The position numbers and the translations under genes were made by a program. From IMG/VR virus record IMGVR_UViG_3300031753_000002, positions 1 to 64,000 of that record: DNA of 64,000 nt. One strand, 5' to 3'. The first letter of the stretch is position 1. Each line of letters begins with the position of its first letter. The notes beneath the pieces were generated by a model. The model saw only the letters and a program-made list of their open reading frames with translations, did not search any database and was not told the DNA's origin. Below are positions 2,215 to 18,620 of this stretch, in pieces. This DNA is from a virus.

Positions 2215-2637
2215 CTACCATCCTTGAGCCGCGCGCAATAGAATCTCATACGGGGAAGCGGCTGGGTCGTTGACGGCCAGAAGGGCAAGCATGTCTTCAG
2301 TATCCGTGATTAGCTCGTAATGTATGCCGGGAATCAAGTACAGCTTGGCCTTGTAGCTTTCACCGACTTGTATCAGAACCCATCCGGTTTTGCAACCGGC
2401 GTTGGCGCGACGTGTCTGCCATTCGGCTTGCTTCTCGCGCTTCGCCGGGCGGATCGGCGTGGTAGGCCGCATCGGGCGCTTGCAGGACTTTAGCTCAATC
2501 CAGATTTGCGCGCTCGCGACGAAACCCTCCACATCGGGGGTCCCCTCGCCGGCTGTATTTTCCAGCCGATTCAATTCGAGGTCATGATCCTTTTTCACTC
2601 TGGCGAGGCGCCCCCAAAGAGATTTCTCTTTAGCCAT
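2215..2637 (-). CDS. VRR-NUC / Holliday junction resolvase-like PD-(D/E)XK nuclease
   Basis: RLEN..GEGTPDV...WIELK...Q.EW motif set. Confidence 0.75.
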   Translation of the reverse strand: MAKEKSLWGRLARVKKDHDLELNRLENTAGEGTPDVEGFVASAQIWIELKSCKRPMRPTTPIRPAKREKQAEWQTRRANAGCKTGWVLIQVGESYKAKLYLIPGIHYELITDTEDMLALLAVNDPAASPYEILLRAAQGW

Positions 2638-3133
2638 CGAAATTCTCCGGGAGTGGGGTCCGCGGCGGCTCGCGCCGGATCACGCGCACTCGCGACGGTT
2701 CTTTTGGAGTGGTGGTCGGGGCGAGCATGCCGGACGGCACCGGGTAGGCTGCAACGAGCGCGTATAACGCGCCGCGATAATAGTCGTCCCATTGCTCGCC
2801 GGGAAGCGCGTCATCCGGCACGACCTCGCGGAGCACATTGCGCACTGCCATGCCGACGCCGAAATGGAAGCGAAGGTCTGTGCTCCCGATACGGACGCCT
2901 CGCGCAGCTTGATCCTGCCATTCGGCGCGAGCGGTGTTGGGTACCTTCACGCGAAGATAGGCGATACACCGCTCTTGCTGATCCTGAGTGAGCCGGGCAA
3001 AGTTCTTGCGCTGCCATTCGTCATCGGCGTCTTGCTGATGTTCGGGCTCATACCAGTTCGGGCAGAATGCGCGCATCGCGCGCTTTTCTAATTGGCACTC
3101 GCACGCCTCGCCGTCGCTTCGCTTGCACGTCAT
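2630..3133 (-). CDS. Hypothetical protein
   Basis: ATGA-coupled ORF with a Cys-rich N-terminus and an FHFGVGMAVRN motif. Confidence 0.55.
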   Translation of the reverse strand: MTCKRSDGEACECQLEKRAMRAFCPNWYEPEHQQDADDEWQRKNFARLTQDQQERCIAYLRVKVPNTARAEWQDQAARGVRIGSTDLRFHFGVGMAVRNVLREVVPDDALPGEQWDDYYRGALYALVAAYPVPSGMLAPTTTPKEPSRVRVIRREPPRTPLPENFDG

Positions 3134-3564
3134 TTCGGTTCTCCACGCGCACGGGCCGCTTCGATTTCCAACTGCAACGCGGCGAGGATGCGCCACGCCG
3201 CCTTCGCCATGTGTCGGCAACCGTCATCATCCATCTTGCCCCGTTCGATGATGTGGCGCCCTGCTTCGTCGATATTGTTGCCGCCCTTGCCGCGCGCCCA
3301 ATGTAGCGGTTCGCCGGTATTGTGCTTTTCATTGCCGACATGCGAGACCTCTGCAACGGCAATCAACGCGTCGGGGAAATAGTCGAGCAAGCCGGTGACG
3401 ATAGGGATGCGTTTCCGGGCGACGGAATCGGTCGGCATTGTCGCGCCGCCGCCCCACTGTTGCGTGTCCTGTTCGTCCGTCGTCTTGACGCCGACTTGAT
3501 ACGGTTCACACAACGATACGGAAGGCGCCGGGCAAGTCGTGACGGGGCGGCTGGGATTTGACAT
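3130..3564 (-). CDS. dATP/dGTP diphosphohydrolase domain protein (DUF5664-like)
   Basis: FPDALIAVAEVSHVGNEKH...HWARG...RH...HMAKAAWRILA; start uncertain. Confidence 0.7.
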   Translation of the reverse strand: MSNPSRPVTTCPAPSVSLCEPYQVGVKTTDEQDTQQWGGGATMPTDSVARKRIPIVTGLLDYFPDALIAVAEVSHVGNEKHNTGEPLHWARGKGGNNIDEAGRHIIERGKMDDDGCRHMAKAAWRILAALQLEIEAARARGEPK

Positions 3565-3711
3565 GTGTGATCCTATGATAGTGCTGGCAAATTCCAGGGG
3601 TCGGCGGTTCGGGAAGGTGTAGGCAATGGCAGCGCGAGCCGAGCGCGCACAACCATTTGGTCGGGCGCGCGGCCTCAATTACTGCGTCGAAGATTTCCTC
3701 AGGGGCGCTCA

Positions 3712-3927
3712 TTACAGCCCCGTCTTGCGGATCATCGCCAACAAGCCGTCCGCGAATCCCAGCGCAAAGCTCGCAATTTCATCCGGCACGTCGGAAGCTT
3801 GCATCGCTGCGTCGGCATCCGCTTGGATTTTCTCGGCGCGGACATACACATCGCGAAAGCTGGCATTTTGCGTGAATGCGATGCGGCCTTCATTGTACCT
3901 CGCGTCGATAATTCGGAATTCTGACAT
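3712..3927 (-). CDS. Hypothetical protein
   Basis: GGAGG RBS upstream of a 71-aa ORF. Confidence 0.55.
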   Translation of the reverse strand: MSEFRIIDARYNEGRIAFTQNASFRDVYVRAEKIQADADAAMQASDVPDEIASFALGFADGLLAMIRKTGL

Positions 3928-4074
3928 GGGGACCTCCCGCTAGGAAGAAAACAAGGAACATCACGGCGGAGGCGATAGCGCTACGGGTCACAATCCAGAA
4001 CAAGAAACTCGGGGCCAGTGCGGCTAACAGCCTATTCATGACGTTCTCCTACGGGGGTCCGTAATAAAAGTCAA

Positions 4075-4102
4075 CCCCGGCGGGGGCGAAATCCCGCCGG
4101 GG
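4075..4102 (-). terminator. GC-rich hairpin downstream of DUF932, probable terminator
   Basis: CCCCGGCGGG / CCCGCCGGGG 10-bp inverted repeat, with a T run a few nt after it on the minus strand. Confidence 0.55.
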
Positions 4103-4129
4103 TCTCCATAATCGGGTCACCACTCCCGA

Positions 4130-5227
4130 TTACGCCGAAAGGCTAGGACGGAAGGGCTGCTTCAAGATCGCCCCTACGTCGGCAGTGGCGGCGGTCTTCG
4201 CGGCCACGGCTTTGAGCAAGGCACCATCGGTCAAGTCGTCCAGGAAGCTGACCGCGGTCGCCTTCATAACAGAGCCGGAACCAAACTGAGCGGACAAGAA
4301 GCGCTTTTCGTCTGCCCCGTCCGGGCCTTTGCTGTGGTCAACGTAGCGGGTCACTGCATTGAGCGCGGCCCAAGCGGTGCCCGGTTCGGTCCCTTCCCGA
4401 ACGGTTGCAGCGTATGCCTTGCCAAGGTCTTCGAATTGGTTCATCTTTCGACTGGAAATGTCAGTGCGCGGAGCATCGAACGGGATATCCAAGCACGTCT
4501 TGAACAGCCGAGAGATTTGATCCTTGGTCAAATGGGTCTGCACCATCGCGTCGCCCATGTTCTTGTACGCGGTGAAGCCCTTCACGATGGTCGCCAACTC
4601 ACGCCCGACCGCATACTTGTCAAACTTGGTGTTGTGCCGGGTCCGAACCTCGCAGCCCTTCTCGGCGAGCGCGCTGTCGAGCGTGTTGCTGCAGACAACG
4701 CGGGTCGCAACGGCCTTGTTGATCGTGGCGCCGGAACCGTCGAAGGTCGTGGTTGCGAGCAAGTGCGCCTTGTGCTTGTCGCCGCCGACAATCAGTTCAT
4801 CCCGATAGCGCAACGTGATGAAGATGATTTCACCCTGCTTAAGGCAGCCGGCCGTGTCGATTTCGAAGCGGTCGTCAACGGAGGCGTATTGGTCGGCCCA
4901 TTCAAGAAGCTGGACCGGCTGATGCGGCTGGTAGATTTTGGAGACCGACCGCGGAGCGAGGATGTGGCCATTGTCGCCGCGGACGATGAAACGGGTTCCA
5001 TCAACCGCAACCATGCCGAGATTGAGCGCGGCCAATTCCGGGTGACTAAAGTCGGCGAAGGCAGAGACTTTGATCGCGTGCCAGTCGAGACCAGCATCGT
5101 GCGCCCAAGAGGCGATGCTCTGGCCGGACTTCTTCTCTTGCCCGAAATGATGCCACCAATTCTTGCGAGACCCGAGGGCTGCGAAGCTGTGGCGACCGTC
5201 TGCGGTCGTACCGATGTTGTGTGCCAT
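4130..5227 (-). CDS. DUF932 family (phage/plasmid TIGR03299-like) protein
   Basis: MAHNI...WHHFG...AGLDW...TTFDGS...RVVCSNT...RH...GTAWAALNAVTRYVDH; AAGGA RBS. Confidence 0.85.
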   Translation of the reverse strand: MAHNIGTTADGRHSFAALGSRKNWWHHFGQEKKSGQSIASWAHDAGLDWHAIKVSAFADFSHPELAALNLGMVAVDGTRFIVRGDNGHILAPRSVSKIYQPHQPVQLLEWADQYASVDDRFEIDTAGCLKQGEIIFITLRYRDELIVGGDKHKAHLLATTTFDGSGATINKAVATRVVCSNTLDSALAEKGCEVRTRHNTKFDKYAVGRELATIVKGFTAYKNMGDAMVQTHLTKDQISRLFKTCLDIPFDAPRTDISSRKMNQFEDLGKAYAATVREGTEPGTAWAALNAVTRYVDHSKGPDGADEKRFLSAQFGSGSVMKATAVSFLDDLTDGALLKAVAAKTAATADVGAILKQPFRPSLSA

Positions 5228-5314
5228 GTTCTGTCCTTTCAATTCGCCGCTATCGGCGACGCCCCCTACATGGCATGGGCGGCGGCCGGGTGCAAATCCA
5301 TTCTGCGGTCTTGG

Positions 5315-14291: not shown

Positions 14292-14618
14292 TCAAATACC
14301 CTCTAGCTTATCAAAGGCCCGCATCAGTTCCTCGGCTAGGCTTGATCCGGTGAGAGAATCGAGCACAACGAAAGAGAGTTCGCCACCTTCGTCATCGAGC
14401 AACATCAATCGCATCTTCTGGCCGGGCAGGTCAACATCAACGCGGACATCCTGCGCGGGAAAAACATCCCCGGATTCCAGAGCTTGTTCATTTCGCCCGA
14501 GCCGGCGCACCGCATCGGATGCAAGCTTCAAGACCATTTGATAGCAGGGCTCAAGGTCGTCCGCGCGTCGAATACGGTCCAGCCGGCGCGCGAGAGTTTG
14601 CGCAGTAGGGTCCATCAT
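14292..14618 (-). CDS. Hypothetical protein
   Basis: ATGA overlap with the polymerase stop. Confidence 0.55.
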   Translation of the reverse strand: MMDPTAQTLARRLDRIRRADDLEPCYQMVLKLASDAVRRLGRNEQALESGDVFPAQDVRVDVDLPGQKMRLMLLDDEGGELSFVVLDSLTGSSLAEELMRAFDKLEGI

Positions 14619-17600
14619 TTTCGCAACCGGTGCCCTATCCAGCCTTCCGCCGCAATGGGCATCCCAGGCGCCCACCCCACGTCAGCCGCCATCATGGCTT
14701 CGAATTCCTTGACTGTGGCCGTGCCGATGGGGGCCTCGGCTATGACCTCGTCATGTATCGACAAGAGTAAGTCGAAATCGGGTTCCATGTCAACCCGGAA
14801 CATGGCCTCGGCCAATAAATCACGCGAAGACGCCTGATCCGCGTTTTCCACCAAAGTTCCGCCATGCGTGCCGCACCGCTGCCACTGCTTCGTGATGATA
14901 TTGCGGCCCATGAAACTCAGGTGTGGCGAGAGAAAATTCTCAGGTGGGTCCTGCGTCAGCCGCTTGCGCTGCTTATCAGCTAGCTTCTCGGCATGGTAGC
15001 GGGCGCTCGCTGTCGAGACGCCGATCTTCGCCTGGAAATTAACCTTGCACGGCTTGCTGCGCTCATTGATGGCGTTGAAGCGCCATGTGCATCGCGTATG
15101 AACCTCCGGATACAGATAGGCGAGTAATCGACCACTCGGCAGGCGGCAATGCAGGAAAGGGCCGGACACAAAATAGCTGACGGCGCCGATGCCTGTTTCG
15201 TCGCCTCCCGCGTAGCGCTCGCCACCAAGCATCACAGCATCGATCGCCGCGGCGTTGTAGTCTTTCCACAACCTGGGGACCTCGGGGCACTTGTCCTTGC
15301 GATAGACCTTCACGACCATCTGACAGAATTCGTCTTCAAGCCATATGCCTTCTTCTGCCCAAACGGTAGCCTGGAATTTCTCCCATCCCATGGAGTTATG
15401 AACGATCATAGGACCATCACAGGTCAAAATCATATATCGATTCCGTGGCCCTGAATCGATTAAATCATATACTTTTTCCTTTCTGCCGACGCGTATTTCT
15501 ACATTGCTCACTCCGAGTCGTGAAGCGAATATTGCCCGGCTCATAGCCGCAATCATTATCCCTTCGATCCATTTCAAGGTGTGAATCATCCCAACCTGGC
15601 AACGTCCGAATATGTCTGAGAAAAGCGGCTCGATCTTTGTACCAATCCAAGCAGACCTCGATCCCTCGGGCGCCGTAATCTTTGAATTTAGGATTTCGTG
15701 TGTTGTGGCATCGTCCGATTGCCGCGGATAATCGATTAAGGTGTCGTTCTCGGTGCTCACTTTCTGGCATTGCGGCTTTGTATGCCGCATGTCTTCGATC
15801 CGCTGCCGCATGTTTCGAACAGATGTTGCAACGCGTTGAGCGACCGGCGCGCCAATTCGCCAAATCGATTTGATGTTCCGGCGCTCCGCATTTGCACCGC
15901 ACCACGATCCGTTTGACGCCGTTGCGAGGACCGACGATATACCCAACAACGGTAAGGCTTCCTTGCCGGCTGCCAATGCGCGGGAGCGCAAGGTCTCGTT
16001 GGCGACCACTTTCCCGGCATGGTGGAACCGATCCTCGCACCATATGGGATGATCCATCGTCGAGAATGAATCGCCCAAATTCGTCACGGATTTTTCGCCG
16101 TTGCATACAAGTCCTTTATGACTCACCCATTCGATCCCATCCCATAGCATATCTGAATCGGCTTTGTCAATCCGAACCCATCCACGTTTCGTCAAGATAA
16201 GAGTGTCAGCGGCATGGCAATAGCCGAGACCAAGTATGGCTCGCTTGCCTAGAGCGCGCTTATCAGGATGATTGTTCTTGAACCACTTGATTTGCTCTTT
16301 GTCCGTGGCATCGCATTCCATCTTGTAGATGCCGCACGCCATATCGATATACGGGTCGCCGCCAGTTCGGAACAGAAGCAATTGCGATGCGCAACCAGAA
16401 AGCCACGCCAGTTTTCGGGCCTCGATTGCGTTGAAATCGGCGGCATAGAGTTCCTTTCCAGGCGACGCGACCAACGCGCCCCGACACGCCTTGGCAAGCG
16501 CGGGCAACGGCTCACCCCATATGAGCGTGATGTATTCGCGGTCTAACGTGAGAATGTCGTCCCACGCCTTGCACATATCCTTCGAATACCCGCGGACAAA
16601 GTTGTGAGGCTGTACGCCCTTGCCGGACCACCGGCCAGTTCGGTCGGCGCCGTTGTAGAGCATAATGTCGTGAAGGCGCCCGTCCGGGCACATCGATTCG
16701 ACCATCTGCTTATACTTGCTGACTGAGGTCCTGTTGACCTCAAGGCAGATTTCCAGCGCGCGATGCAGCGGCTCGCCGGCTTCGCCGAATTGTTCCCATT
16801 TTGCGTCAGTTGCCGGTCGTGCAGCATCCTTGGCTTCGTCACCGGCCTTCGTCGGCACACCGTATAACTCGAAGCTTAGCGTGTCGGCCTTGGTGTCGAG
16901 AAGCCCGACCGCTCCGGGATTTATCACTTGGATCGTTTCGTTAGCCCACTTTTTGAACACCGCTCGACGCGAACCGCGGTCAACTCGGCCGCCAGTGATT
17001 TCGAAAAGCTCCGAATTGAGCCTGTCAGTTTCGAGGCGGGCAAGTTCCAGCGCCTCTCGCGCCGCGGTTTCGTCGAGTAGGATGCCGCGCTGATTCATGC
17101 GGAAATCCATGCGCCAGTATTCTAGCTCTCTTTCTGTCATTTCGGGGCACCAATTGCTGTACTCGCGTTCGGTGCGCACGTCCTGTTTGCAGTAGTCCCA
17201 ATTGCGGCGATGCTCGATTTCTTCCTCGCAGAAACGAGCTATCTGCGGCTGACCGCGGCGGCGAGGCATCGGCTTACTGAGCTTGTTTATCAGTCGGCGC
17301 CCATCAACGAGCTTCTGGTTATCCAGGCCGATCGCCTTGGCCGCGTCACCGAGCGCGCGAGGCAGAGACATGCACGACCCTTTCGCAGCGGAGCACCGCA
17401 TTTGTTCTAAACGCAACGCCACGCGGAATTCCGGGAACTCGCGTAGGAGCGGGCCATTCCATATCGAGAACTCGAAATAGGAATTGTGAGCTTCGAAAAT
17501 CTCGCCGTCCGCGACGCGTTCGATTAATTCGAGAAAGTCAGGATCATCTTCAGGGGTCTTGTCAATCCAGGGATGACCACGATGCCAAAGTCTAATTCGA

Positions 17601-17722
17601 CCCTCTTGCCCGTAGGTCCAGCAGGCACAAAGAGCTTGAGTTTGATCATCGGTAGCGTAGCGTGTCGCCCCGAGCTTAATCAAGTCCACAACGCCCCGAG
17701 TCTCAAAATCAAAAAAGATCAT
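14615..17722 (-). CDS. polA: Family A DNA polymerase with 3'-5' exonuclease domain and an intein
   Basis: DFET (ExoI), AHNSYFE, YCKQDV, RTGRWSG, ADFNAIEAR (motif A), R..GK..ILGLGY (motif B), IHDEVI (motif C). Confidence 0.93.
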   Translation of the reverse strand: MIFFDFETRGVVDLIKLGATRYATDDQTQALCACWTYGQEGRIRLWHRGHPWIDKTPEDDPDFLELIERVADGEIFEAHNSYFEFSIWNGPLLREFPEFRVALRLEQMRCSAAKGSCMSLPRALGDAAKAIGLDNQKLVDGRRLINKLSKPMPRRRGQPQIARFCEEEIEHRRNWDYCKQDVRTEREYSNWCPEMTERELEYWRMDFRMNQRGILLDETAAREALELARLETDRLNSELFEITGGRVDRGSRRAVFKKWANETIQVINPGAVGLLDTKADTLSFELYGVPTKAGDEAKDAARPATDAKWEQFGEAGEPLHRALEICLEVNRTSVSKYKQMVESMCPDGRLHDIMLYNGADRTGRWSGKGVQPHNFVRGYSKDMCKAWDDILTLDREYITLIWGEPLPALAKACRGALVASPGKELYAADFNAIEARKLAWLSGCASQLLLFRTGGDPYIDMACGIYKMECDATDKEQIKWFKNNHPDKRALGKRAILGLGYCHAADTLILTKRGWVRIDKADSDMLWDGIEWVSHKGLVCNGEKSVTNLGDSFSTMDHPIWCEDRFHHAGKVVANETLRSRALAAGKEALPLLGISSVLATASNGSWCGANAERRNIKSIWRIGAPVAQRVATSVRNMRQRIEDMRHTKPQCQKVSTENDTLIDYPRQSDDATTHEILNSKITAPEGSRSAWIGTKIEPLFSDIFGRCQVGMIHTLKWIEGIMIAAMSRAIFASRLGVSNVEIRVGRKEKVYDLIDSGPRNRYMILTCDGPMIVHNSMGWEKFQATVWAEEGIWLEDEFCQMVVKVYRKDKCPEVPRLWKDYNAAAIDAVMLGGERYAGGDETGIGAVSYFVSGPFLHCRLPSGRLLAYLYPEVHTRCTWRFNAINERSKPCKVNFQAKIGVSTASARYHAEKLADKQRKRLTQDPPENFLSPHLSFMGRNIITKQWQRCGTHGGTLVENADQASSRDLLAEAMFRVDMEPDFDLLLSIHDEVIAEAPIGTATVKEFEAMMAADVGWAPGMPIAAEGWIGHRLRK
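15395..16219 (-). mobile_element. Intein (275 aa) in motif B of the DNA polymerase
   Basis: LGLGY|CHAADTLILTKRGW...TMDH...VYDL...IVHN|SMG: Cys1, block B TxxH, block F, terminal His-Asn, Ser+1. Confidence 0.92.
15465..16106 (-). mobile_element. HNH-type homing endonuclease encoded out of frame within the intein
   Basis: RCKCG...CNIC...RCHN.RN..FKDYGARGIEVC..W...MDRRDNDCGYEPGNIRFTTRSEQCRN; AAGGA RBS 5 nt upstream. Confidence 0.85.
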
Positions 17723-18135
17723 TTGGATTTCTCCAAATAATCAGCCATTCGCCGGAGTAGCTGTGGATCGTCTTTGACGCTGCCAAGAGTTAAGTTGCAC
17801 GCTCTACAAATCCAACCACGAAACCGCTTTGATGTATGGCAATGATCTAGCGCTAGAGATATGCGCTTGTCATAAAGCTCACACTTATCCGGCATCGGAC
17901 GATTTGGAATTTCACAACCCAAGCGACGCGCGATAATCTCGGGTCGCTTTCGATAAGCCTGTTGTTTCTCTCTATACCCGGAGTCATTGTTATAGTTGGT
18001 TTTCATCCAGGTTCGGTGCTTTTCTTTTACATCTGGACGCTGATTATAAATTATTCTTTTTGCTCGATACCGCTGAGCATAGAACTGGCGTTTTCGTTCT
18101 ATCATCTGATCGTATGAGAGGCCAAGAGATCGCAT
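17719..18135 (-). mobile_element. Endonuclease VII-family homing endonuclease, possibly degenerate
   Basis: LDHCHTSKRFRGWICRACNLTLG..KDD...LRRMADYL; the first CxxC reads CELY; AT-rich DNA. Confidence 0.8.
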
Positions 18136-18620
18136 CAATACAGCGATGGATAGACGTAGCAGAACACATCGCGTCCAGTGGAGGTCATCCAAACCCAGCC
18201 GTGCCCCGTTATATTCGGATGCGCCGGGTCCGGCGGAACAATGCGGTCCTTCGGAATGAGGATGCGCGTGCCGGCCGGGATGCGAGTCTTGCAATCGCGT
18301 TCGCCGTCATTCTGACAATATGGCTGTTCGGCCTCTGCCGCGGCGGCCTTTTCCGGGGTGTCGCCCTCAGTGATGATCGCCCAAAGCTCGCCGCCCTGCG
18401 TATCCAGTTCGTCGGCCTCATAGGCATCGGCCGGACCGCAGCACGAATCGTGATTCCAATCGCCGGTCCATGGGCGCGTATTTGGCCGCTTCTGATTTGA
18501 GAGGAAATCTCTTGTCGCGTCGGCGATCCTATCCCAGGCGCCGGGATAGAGCGGACGCGCGGGTGCGTAAACGACTCCGATCACGAGACAGACCACAGTG
18601 CATATCGACAACACTTTCAT
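18135..18620 (-). CDS. Exported protein with a CC motif
   Basis: Signal-peptide-like N-terminus; SCCGPADAY...G.GWVW...VFCY. Confidence 0.65.
   Translation of the reverse strand: MKVLSICTVVCLVIGVVYAPARPLYPGAWDRIADATRDFLSNQKRPNTRPWTGDWNHDSCCGPADAYEADELDTQGGELWAIITEGDTPEKAAAAEAEQPYCQNDGERDCKTRIPAGTRILIPKDRIVPPDPAHPNITGHGWVWMTSTGRDVFCYVYPSLY

Follow-up and report, generated by a model that had tools for sequence, protein, structure and literature searches.

The window analysed here, a 64,000-nucleotide (nt) stretch corresponding to positions 1 to 64,000 of IMG/VR virus record IMGVR_UViG_3300031753_000002 (86,784 bp in total, with direct terminal repeats and rated complete), carries a family A DNA polymerase (PolA) gene with a contiguous intein, and a second complete gene was found to be overprinted within this intein, on the same strand and in another reading frame. 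The presence of a separate gene in an unbroken and apparently splicing-competent PolA intein had been put forward in a preliminary description of the window, and it was borne out by the present analysis, in which the gene proved to be conserved; its maintenance by selection was supported by the open polymerase frame of the relatives and by codon-position diversity. The whole arrangement is probably best explained as a splicing intein with a spacer and an overprinted, internally initiated mobility gene.

The polymerase gene and its intein

The open reading frame (ORF) of the PolA precursor lies on the minus strand at 14615-17722 and encodes 1035 amino acids (aa). It was assigned by PHROG search (phrog_17, DNA polymerase, E 4.7e-73), and its match to Pfam DNA_pol_A (E 8.4e-8) was under the curated cut-off. 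By tblastn against phage polymerases, the closest one was that of Roseobacter phage RDJL3 (41.9% identity), with the match falling into two pieces. The class-1-type intein occupies 15395-16219 on the minus strand (825 nt, 275 aa, PolA residues 502-776, stop-free), with the Cys1 codon at 16219-16217, the terminal His-Asn at 15400-15395 and the +1 Ser codon at 15394-15392. The RDJL3 allele without intein reads ILGLGYQMGWEKF and the window reads ILGLGY[C...HN]SMGWEKF. Since the RDJL3 allele is without exactly those 275 residues, the intein is a precise in-frame insertion with intein termini. The coordinates, the termini and the absence of stops agreed with those given in the preliminary description, and the boundaries were confirmed by the RDJL3 allele.

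In an alignment of 26 inteins, the residues C1, T54 and H57 (block B), D252 (block F), G257, G269, H274 and N275 were invariant, and Y251 was conserved in at least 90% of the sequences. Block B of the window intein reads TMDH (T54 and H57; 16060-16049) and block F reads VYDL (Y251 and D252). The intein ended with (H/A)N followed by C or S in all of the 35 bounded loci, the window being counted. Solved mini-inteins (Spl DnaX, PI-MtuI and NEQ068) matched the profile of the 26 inteins at E values from 4e-4 to 1e-3, in the N-terminal region only, and Pfam Hint and Vint gave weak matches in one or two of the 26. Given its intact essential residues, and since the polymerase could not function with the intein left in place, the contiguous class-1 intein of the window most likely splices.

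Three parts of the intein were distinguished on the minus strand: the N-terminal splicing region with blocks A and B (residues 1-95; 15935-16219) and the C-terminal splicing region with blocks F and G (residues 236-275; 15395-15514), both under polymerase-frame constraint, and between them a central spacer (residues 96-235; 15515-15934), in which the polymerase frame is only kept stop-free. The translation of the intein in the polymerase frame gave no Pfam match at E<=1, in line with the earlier statement that its middle contains no recognisable nuclease in this frame. The same translation, spacer included, matched phrog_93, annotated as 'endonuclease' (E 3.6e-17, residues 21-224). This PHROG family probably holds spacer-frame translations of such inteins, which makes its functional label suspect.

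Position, start and stop of the nested gene

The nested ORF, encoding an endonuclease-like 'D-R-x-D' protein of 213 aa, lies wholly inside the intein at 15465-16106 on the minus strand, from the ATG at 16106 to the TGA at 15467-15465. It is in frame 3 (equal to -1) of the polymerase, because (17722-16106) mod 3 = 2. It covers the central spacer and extends into the inner margins of the two splicing regions. The start lies upstream of block B and the TGA is formed from the block-F Tyr-Asp codons TAT GAT. A Shine-Dalgarno-like AAGGA motif (16116-16112, minus strand) is placed 5 nt upstream of the ATG at 16106; no other candidate start of the window is preceded by one. The strand, the frame, the AAGGA, the overlap with block B and the end at block F were all as previously described. 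The estimate of about 640 dual-coding nt held physically (642 nt), but the aa constraint across the family was mostly exerted in one frame at a time, as detailed below.

In the relatives, the first nested-frame ATG falls in the Leu-Trp or the Glu-Trp codons of the conserved intein motif LWDGxEWV, and in many of them GGAG or GGAGG, provided by intein Gly-Glu-Glu codons, lies upstream of the nested start. In all of the 32 frame-3 loci, with the window counted, the nested ORF was confined to the intein; the distance of this ATG from the intein start was 77-137 nt in 30 loci (exceptions L018 and L030), and that of the nested stop from the intein end was 1-70 nt in 31 (exception the decayed L008). 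The stop was a TAA within the block-G codons CAT AAY in six loci. The two ATGs used by most relatives are also found in the Leu-Trp and Glu-Trp codons of the window (16145-16143 and 16130-16128), where they are closed by a frame-3 TAA at 16118-16116 on the minus strand.

Conservation of the layout among relatives

The nested protein was searched by tblastn against 50,697 phage records, 674 of which were matched, and the best matches lay inside the polymerase genes of Pseudomonas phage MR14, EBPR siphovirus 2 and many Salmonella Jerseyviruses. In each of the fetched polymerases, and in that of Vibrio phage 97.13, the nested match was in frame 3 and the polymerase frame was open. From a profile-guided IMG/VR scan, the best 80 of 577 confirmed loci were taken, and the census set comprised 86 loci at which the nested protein had a homologue (87 loci including RDJL3, which is without one). 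The scan of homologous PolA inteins for nested ORFs, which the preliminary description had suggested, gave a positive result: the gene was nested in an intein-bearing ORF at 37 of the 86 loci, comprising 31 in frame 3, four in frame 2 (L041, L060, L061 and L064, with L061 and L064 identical) and two cut by contig ends (L037 and L039). The host frame of the frame-2 loci again contained no stops, and these cases imply independent invasions or a register shift.

Every locus with at least 38% identity to the nested protein of the window was nested. Four of the 86 loci appeared fractured (L057, L079, L081 and L082, the last three by census only), and at the other 45 neither intein blocks nor a long ORF with such blocks was seen, according to the census classification and not to locus-by-locus inspection. 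An in-frame (canonical) version of the nested gene was found at none of the 86 loci, and no long protein fusing it in frame was found at E<=1e-10, which is weak evidence. Single-protein scans of viral and metagenome contigs returned only free-standing homologues of about 30% identity. Beneath the polymerase match, an 'endonuclease' is annotated in the record of Salmonella phage Ijeoma and an 'HNH endonuclease' in that of Sodalis phage SO-1, and therefore some annotators had already called the nested ORF, without comment.

The census bears directly on two alternatives. The first, raised in the preliminary description itself, is that two compensating sequencing or assembly indels in this metagenome-derived record displaced an HNH gene that is really in frame with the intein. 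It is improbable in the extreme, and is effectively refuted by the same offset in 31 independent loci, including isolates (Salmonella Jerseyviruses, Pseudomonas phage MR14, Vibrio phage 97.13 and EBPR siphovirus 2); the polymerase frame was stop-free in all 31, and the census contained no in-frame relatives. A sequencing artefact or an in-frame HNH gene was rejected on these grounds. The second alternative is a programmed -1 frameshift, by which an N-extein/N-intein/endonuclease fusion would be made and not a free protein. The nested gene is indeed in the -1 frame at 31 of the 35 complete nested loci; this alternative is nevertheless very unlikely, because no X_XXY_YYZ heptamer was present in the relevant stretch in 28 of the 31 loci, nor was one present in the window. 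In addition, the nested gene is in the +1 frame at four loci, in-frame start codons are present, often with GGAG or GGAGG upstream, and such a fusion could not splice. The overprinted, internally initiated gene is the reading followed below.

Open polymerase frame and frame-specific constraint

Across the nested stretch, no stop was found in the polymerase frame of any of the 31 frame-3 loci, and 1-27 stops were found in the remaining frame; for the nested ORF of the window, the corresponding numbers were 0 and 11, respectively. Non-nested homologues (n=39, with matches of at least 400 nt) contained a mean of 6.0 stops in the same relative frame, and the only stop-free one among the 39 had a GC content of 72%. 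When synonymous codons were drawn according to the usage of the phage's own extein and RNR (20,000 draws), 5.3 polymerase-frame stops were expected and the probability of finding none was 0.0018. By synonymous permutation within the ORF, this probability was 0.035. The open polymerase frame in the window exceeds chance.

Constraint was measured as codon-position diversity in 30 sequences, at the level of the family, instead of as lineage-specific dN/dS. For intein residues 0-70, polymerase-frame position 3 was the most variable (0.61-0.64) and the aa identity was 0.38-0.53, and residues 70-95 formed a transition zone between the frames. For residues 95-235, the most variable one was polymerase-frame position 2, which is position 3 of the nested frame (0.63-0.71), and the aa identity in the polymerase frame was 0.15-0.29. 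For residues 235-275, polymerase-frame position 3 was again the most variable (0.61), with an aa identity of 0.50. The first approximately 25 nested codons varied most at their position 1, and so are dictated by the intein. On average, pairwise aa identity was 0.45 in the splicing regions and 0.48 in the nested core, as against 0.23 in the polymerase-frame centre. From the switch of frame in constraint together with these identities, it follows that the central approximately 140 codons of the intein are an open spacer and that the nested protein is the constrained product, with the nested frame under purifying selection and the host frame under relaxed selection where the two overlap. Across the family, true two-frame constraint is restricted to short transition zones. 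The divergence of the splicing regions was correlated with that of the nested protein (r = 0.68), with none of 2000 Mantel permutations as high, which indicates that the intein splicing regions and the nested gene are inherited as a unit.

Nature of the nested protein

The nested protein matched PHROG families annotated as HNH endonuclease (phrog_374, E 8e-32), but the earlier naming of it as an HNH endonuclease is a weak label, backed neither by a catalytic His, which is absent family-wide, nor by Pfam or NCBIfam. Because the PHROG annotation matches and the defining HNH features are missing, the product is best called 'endonuclease-like', and a homing role would be suggested by its context, namely the insertion sites, the fractured variant and the presence or absence of the element.

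A zinc-ribbon-like CxC...CxxC cluster (C71, C73, C93 and C96; 15819-15896, minus strand), in which all four Cys are invariant in 26 sequences, is followed by a conserved C-terminal module at nested residues 118-206 (15489-15755, minus strand), defined by its invariant columns and having the consensus RC.NP...Y.GRGI.V...W...F...L.GWD..LE.DR.D...GYEPGN.RF..R..N..N.R. In the same 26 sequences, D180, N192 and N204 were invariant, and E189 and N201 nearly so. The last part of the module (LE.DR.D...GYEPGN.RF..R..N..N.R) aligned weakly with the HNH_3 stretch of L063 (..DHINHDG...NLR..T..QN..N.R; hhalign probability 1.5%, E 0.035). In this weak alignment, the invariant Arg stands at the catalytic His of HNH_3, and the equivalence of N192 and N204 with metal ligands rests on the same alignment. 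Known points of comparison are the canonical HNH-containing inteins and the HNH_3 homing endonucleases such as I-HmuI. Unlike in the canonical HNH inteins, the nuclease-like part is out of frame here and the His is replaced by an invariant Arg, and the resemblance to HNH_3 is weak (DRxD..N.RF.T....N..N versus DHxN..NLR..T...N..N).

A number of observations weigh against a nuclease. The window protein matched no Pfam or NCBIfam family at E<=1, and none of 26 family members matched any HNH model, the curated models being Pfam PF01844, PF13392 and PF02945 and those of NCBIfam. A profile search of the PDB found no nuclease, and retrieved the Cys cluster only, as a cytochrome oxidase 5B zinc ribbon at a non-significant E of 0.05-0.7. 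No His was invariant in the 26 sequences, and the position of the catalytic one reads D180-R181; among 272 motif instances in 269 related proteins, DR was found 262 times, ER eight times, others twice and DH never. In P0114 and L063, a canonical HNH or HNH_3 domain precedes the module (for P0114, the region after its canonical HNH domain was matched by the module with an hhalign probability of 99.4%), and the module is present in two or three copies in some proteins (P0066, P0071, P0148, P0176 and P0239). Placement behind HNH domains and in multiple copies would look like what is expected of a DNA-binding module. The module also precedes an AP2 domain in P0119 and P0024. No Pfam model was found in the multi-module proteins tested. 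As a separate observation, one homologue carries a precomputed PF26783, a model missing from the Pfam copy searched.

These observations, together with the AP2-containing proteins, favour the alternative that the nested protein is not an endonuclease and is instead a dead HNH_3 derivative, a DNA-binding targeting or regulatory factor in need of a separate nuclease, or a protein with a function unrelated to homing. A possible partner adjoins the polymerase start: a free-standing endonuclease VII-type ORF of the HNH superfamily (17719-18294, minus strand, 191 aa, PF02945 at E 1.9e-14) lies directly upstream of the polymerase and overlaps its start codon by 4 nt, and it may be a second mobile nuclease gene beside the intein-bearing polymerase or the partner nuclease. 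On the other side, the invariant residues D180, N192 and N204 and the nearly invariant E189 and N201 stand at positions that the weak alignment equates with HNH_3 metal ligands, the gene moves with inteins to several sites, and it takes the place of the homing endonuclease in a fractured gene. The alternative is accordingly regarded as a serious one, if clearly the less favoured, and a mobility protein encoded by the nested gene is retained as the preferred reading.

The D-R-x-D superfamily is very large: at E<=1e-3 it numbers 122,981 cluster representatives, a figure that falls to 78,099 at E<=1e-10 and to 842 at E<=1e-30. Because its members occur as free-standing genes, as genes nested within inteins in either of two frames, and in fractured genes, their behaviour appears homing-like. 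It is possible, as a tentative proposal, that this huge superfamily with Arg for the catalytic His represents either a new DNA-cutting chemistry or nuclease-free homing factors by which nuclease, replication or recombination functions are recruited. A free-standing 157-aa paralogue of the C-terminal module was also observed in the same record outside the window, at approximately 78810-79283 on the plus strand (L090, 1492-1965), with ER as its motif instead of DR.

Signs of mobility and decay, and fractured relatives

The intein with its nested gene was found at several PolA positions (before LGLGY, after LGLGY, after GK..ILG/ELA, and at TNH|C...HN|CVQG). Insertion directly after LGLGY is shared by the window and L008; L032 and L036 carry the element at a second PolA site (TNH|C...HN|CVQG/CCQA), and in L039 and L061 it lies in ORFs without detectable match to the polymerase exteins of the window (NEDLG|C... 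and PWYDMR|C...). When the polymerase of Ent1 was used for megablast, 404 phage records were obtained, of which 151 covered at least 80% and hence contain the intein. Other polymerases are without exactly the 897-nt element, for example that of phage skrot (96.8% identity and 71% coverage, in two pieces), so presence and absence of the element are polymorphic among these relatives, even between Jerseyvirus alleles of up to 96.8% identity.

The nearest relative of the window element for which DNA was available is that of L008, with 75% nt identity over the intein and the same insertion site. This sister (3385-4104) is decayed, a deletion of 108 nt having taken the core of the nested gene; as the length of the deletion is a multiple of three, the polymerase frame is still open and the nested frame is broken. 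The same might be suspected of the window, namely that its nested ORF is an unexpressed or inactive relic and the element a decaying mini-intein with a long spacer. Besides the loss in L008 with the polymerase frame kept, several features of the window point in this direction. The window ORF is without the coiled-coil-like C-terminal tail of approximately 35-45 aa of most relatives, it is without their usual upstream start codons, both ATGs being closed by the TAA, and no sigma-70-like promoter was found on the coding strand within the intein (the only promoter-like site in the intein was on the opposite strand, and promoter-like counts equalled those in shuffled sequence). Such a relic is nonetheless rather improbable. 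The window copy is intact, its 213 codons being uninterrupted and all 20 residues invariant in 26 sequences being kept, and AAGGA precedes its ATG. Moreover, same-length homologues with the same start and end were found in P0001 (76% identity, 213 aa) and P0002 (64% identity, 210 aa), from which it follows that the short, tail-less form is itself conserved. A functional nested gene is therefore preferred for the window.

A link to fractured genes had also been proposed for the window element, and it was substantiated by L057, which carries a gene of the same family between the halves of a split PolA intein. This is a true fractured family A polymerase (2255-5257), at another PolA site than that of the window. 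Its N-part ORF (2255-3547) ends in an N-intein, the gene of the nested family (3381-4181, 266 aa, D-R-x-D family) overlaps the N-part, and the C-part ORF (4178-5257) starts with a C-intein (MIVPVYDI...VHN|S). In the window, no break of the host into two ORFs with intein halves was found and the polymerase frame is continuous. L057 supports a continuum between the nested and the fractured states.

Comparison with known systems

The notion of a previously unknown third architecture in the preliminary description did not hold, since inteins with homing endonucleases in a separate frame have already been described (10.1101/2025.01.02.630785; 10.64898/2026.09.14.751524). A complete ORF in another frame under a stop-free host frame was found in the window and in 31 of 31 frame-3 relatives, and the window is thus a well-supported further member of an already described kind of intein with an out-of-frame gene, and its architecture is not new.

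Out-of-frame homing endonuclease inteins in actinobacteriophages were described by Gosselin, Arsenault and Gogarten (bioRxiv 10.1101/2025.01.02.630785). As in the window, the endonuclease gene in these is on the same strand 'in reading frame 3 relative to the intein' and between the splicing blocks, the in-frame spacer is without recognisable structure, and they are proposed to have originated when a free-standing endonuclease gene invaded an intein. Their endonuclease is endonuclease VII-like, whereas that of the window is D-R-x-D, HNH_3-like and without Endonuclease_7 match, and their polymerase host is DNA polymerase III alpha, whereas here the host is a family A polymerase, from proteobacterial phages and metagenomic viruses. 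The literature search returned no description of a PolA intein family with a nested D-R-x-D gene, and the survey of Gosselin et al. covers actinobacteriophages only. The Jerseyvirus paper PMC8425127, in its pertinent portion, speaks of inteins and homing endonucleases in general terms.

A cyanobacterial dnaX intein with an out-of-frame LAGLIDADG homing endonuclease was reported by Phillips, DeSimone and Gogarten (bioRxiv 10.64898/2026.09.14.751524), who credit Gorbalenya 1998, 'Non-canonical inteins', with the first proposal. Like that of the window, this intein is contiguous, with an overlapping mobility ORF and a sporadic distribution, and the report gives no in-frame ancestor as found; as in the window family, the nested frame is under purifying selection and the host frame is relaxed in the overlap. 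Unlike in the window, the host gene is cellular, the enzyme is of the LAGLIDADG type and the frame offset is another one (a +2 ORF in the naming of the authors). In the ShiLan insertion of mycobacteriophage DNA methylases (Arsenault, Gosselin and Gogarten, Genes 2025, PMC11855218), a hidden frame-3 HNH-type ORF likewise lies in an insertion read through without stops by the host frame. That insertion lacks splicing domains and is retained in the mature protein, whereas intact intein blocks border the one of the window.

Dassa et al. (NAR 2009, PMC2677866) described fractured genes in which a split intein is accompanied by a free-standing homing endonuclease gene. In these, the stretches coding for the N- and C-intein flank the mobility gene, with overlaps of tens of bases, which is exactly the arrangement of L057. 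Unlike these genes, the window has an unbroken polymerase frame and a contiguous intein that is predicted to splice in cis, and the endonucleases of Dassa et al. are GIY-YIG and Vsr-like ones, not of the D-R-x-D family (PMC2677866).

Proposed explanation and significance

In the explanation preferred here, the polymerase mRNA would be translated through the intein, with the spacer tolerated as a loop, and the intein would then splice. Ribosomes would probably also start internally at the ATG at 16106 behind AAGGA. The nested product would most likely be the mobility (homing) protein of the element, by which intein-less polymerase alleles would be recognised and broken, directly or indirectly, and the intein and the nested gene would spread together. 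It is reasonable to suppose that nuclease expression is thereby decoupled from splicing. As for the origin, a free-standing gene of the D-R-x-D family probably invaded a mini-intein with the host frame left unbroken, and a stop arising in the spacer would fracture the gene and split its contiguous intein, as in the relative L057.

When such loci are annotated, the nested gene is usually overlooked or the name 'endonuclease' is given to the polymerase-frame spacer, and the 'HNH' name of the nested-protein family is not backed by a catalytic residue. Cultured and tractable phages are included in the family (Salmonella Jerseyviruses such as Ent1 and SE2, Pseudomonas phage MR14 and Vibrio phage 97.13), and if the Arg-for-His superfamily represents new cutting chemistry or nuclease-free homing factors, either would be directly testable in the Salmonella Jerseyviruses. 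The contiguous-nested, the decayed (L008) and the fractured (L057) states are all found in one family, which makes it usable for testing the model in which a free-standing endonuclease invades an intein, as an account of intein endonuclease domains and of split inteins. For the polymerases concerned, the finding means that selection can hold a host frame open over approximately 420 nt whose aa sequence is dictated by another gene.

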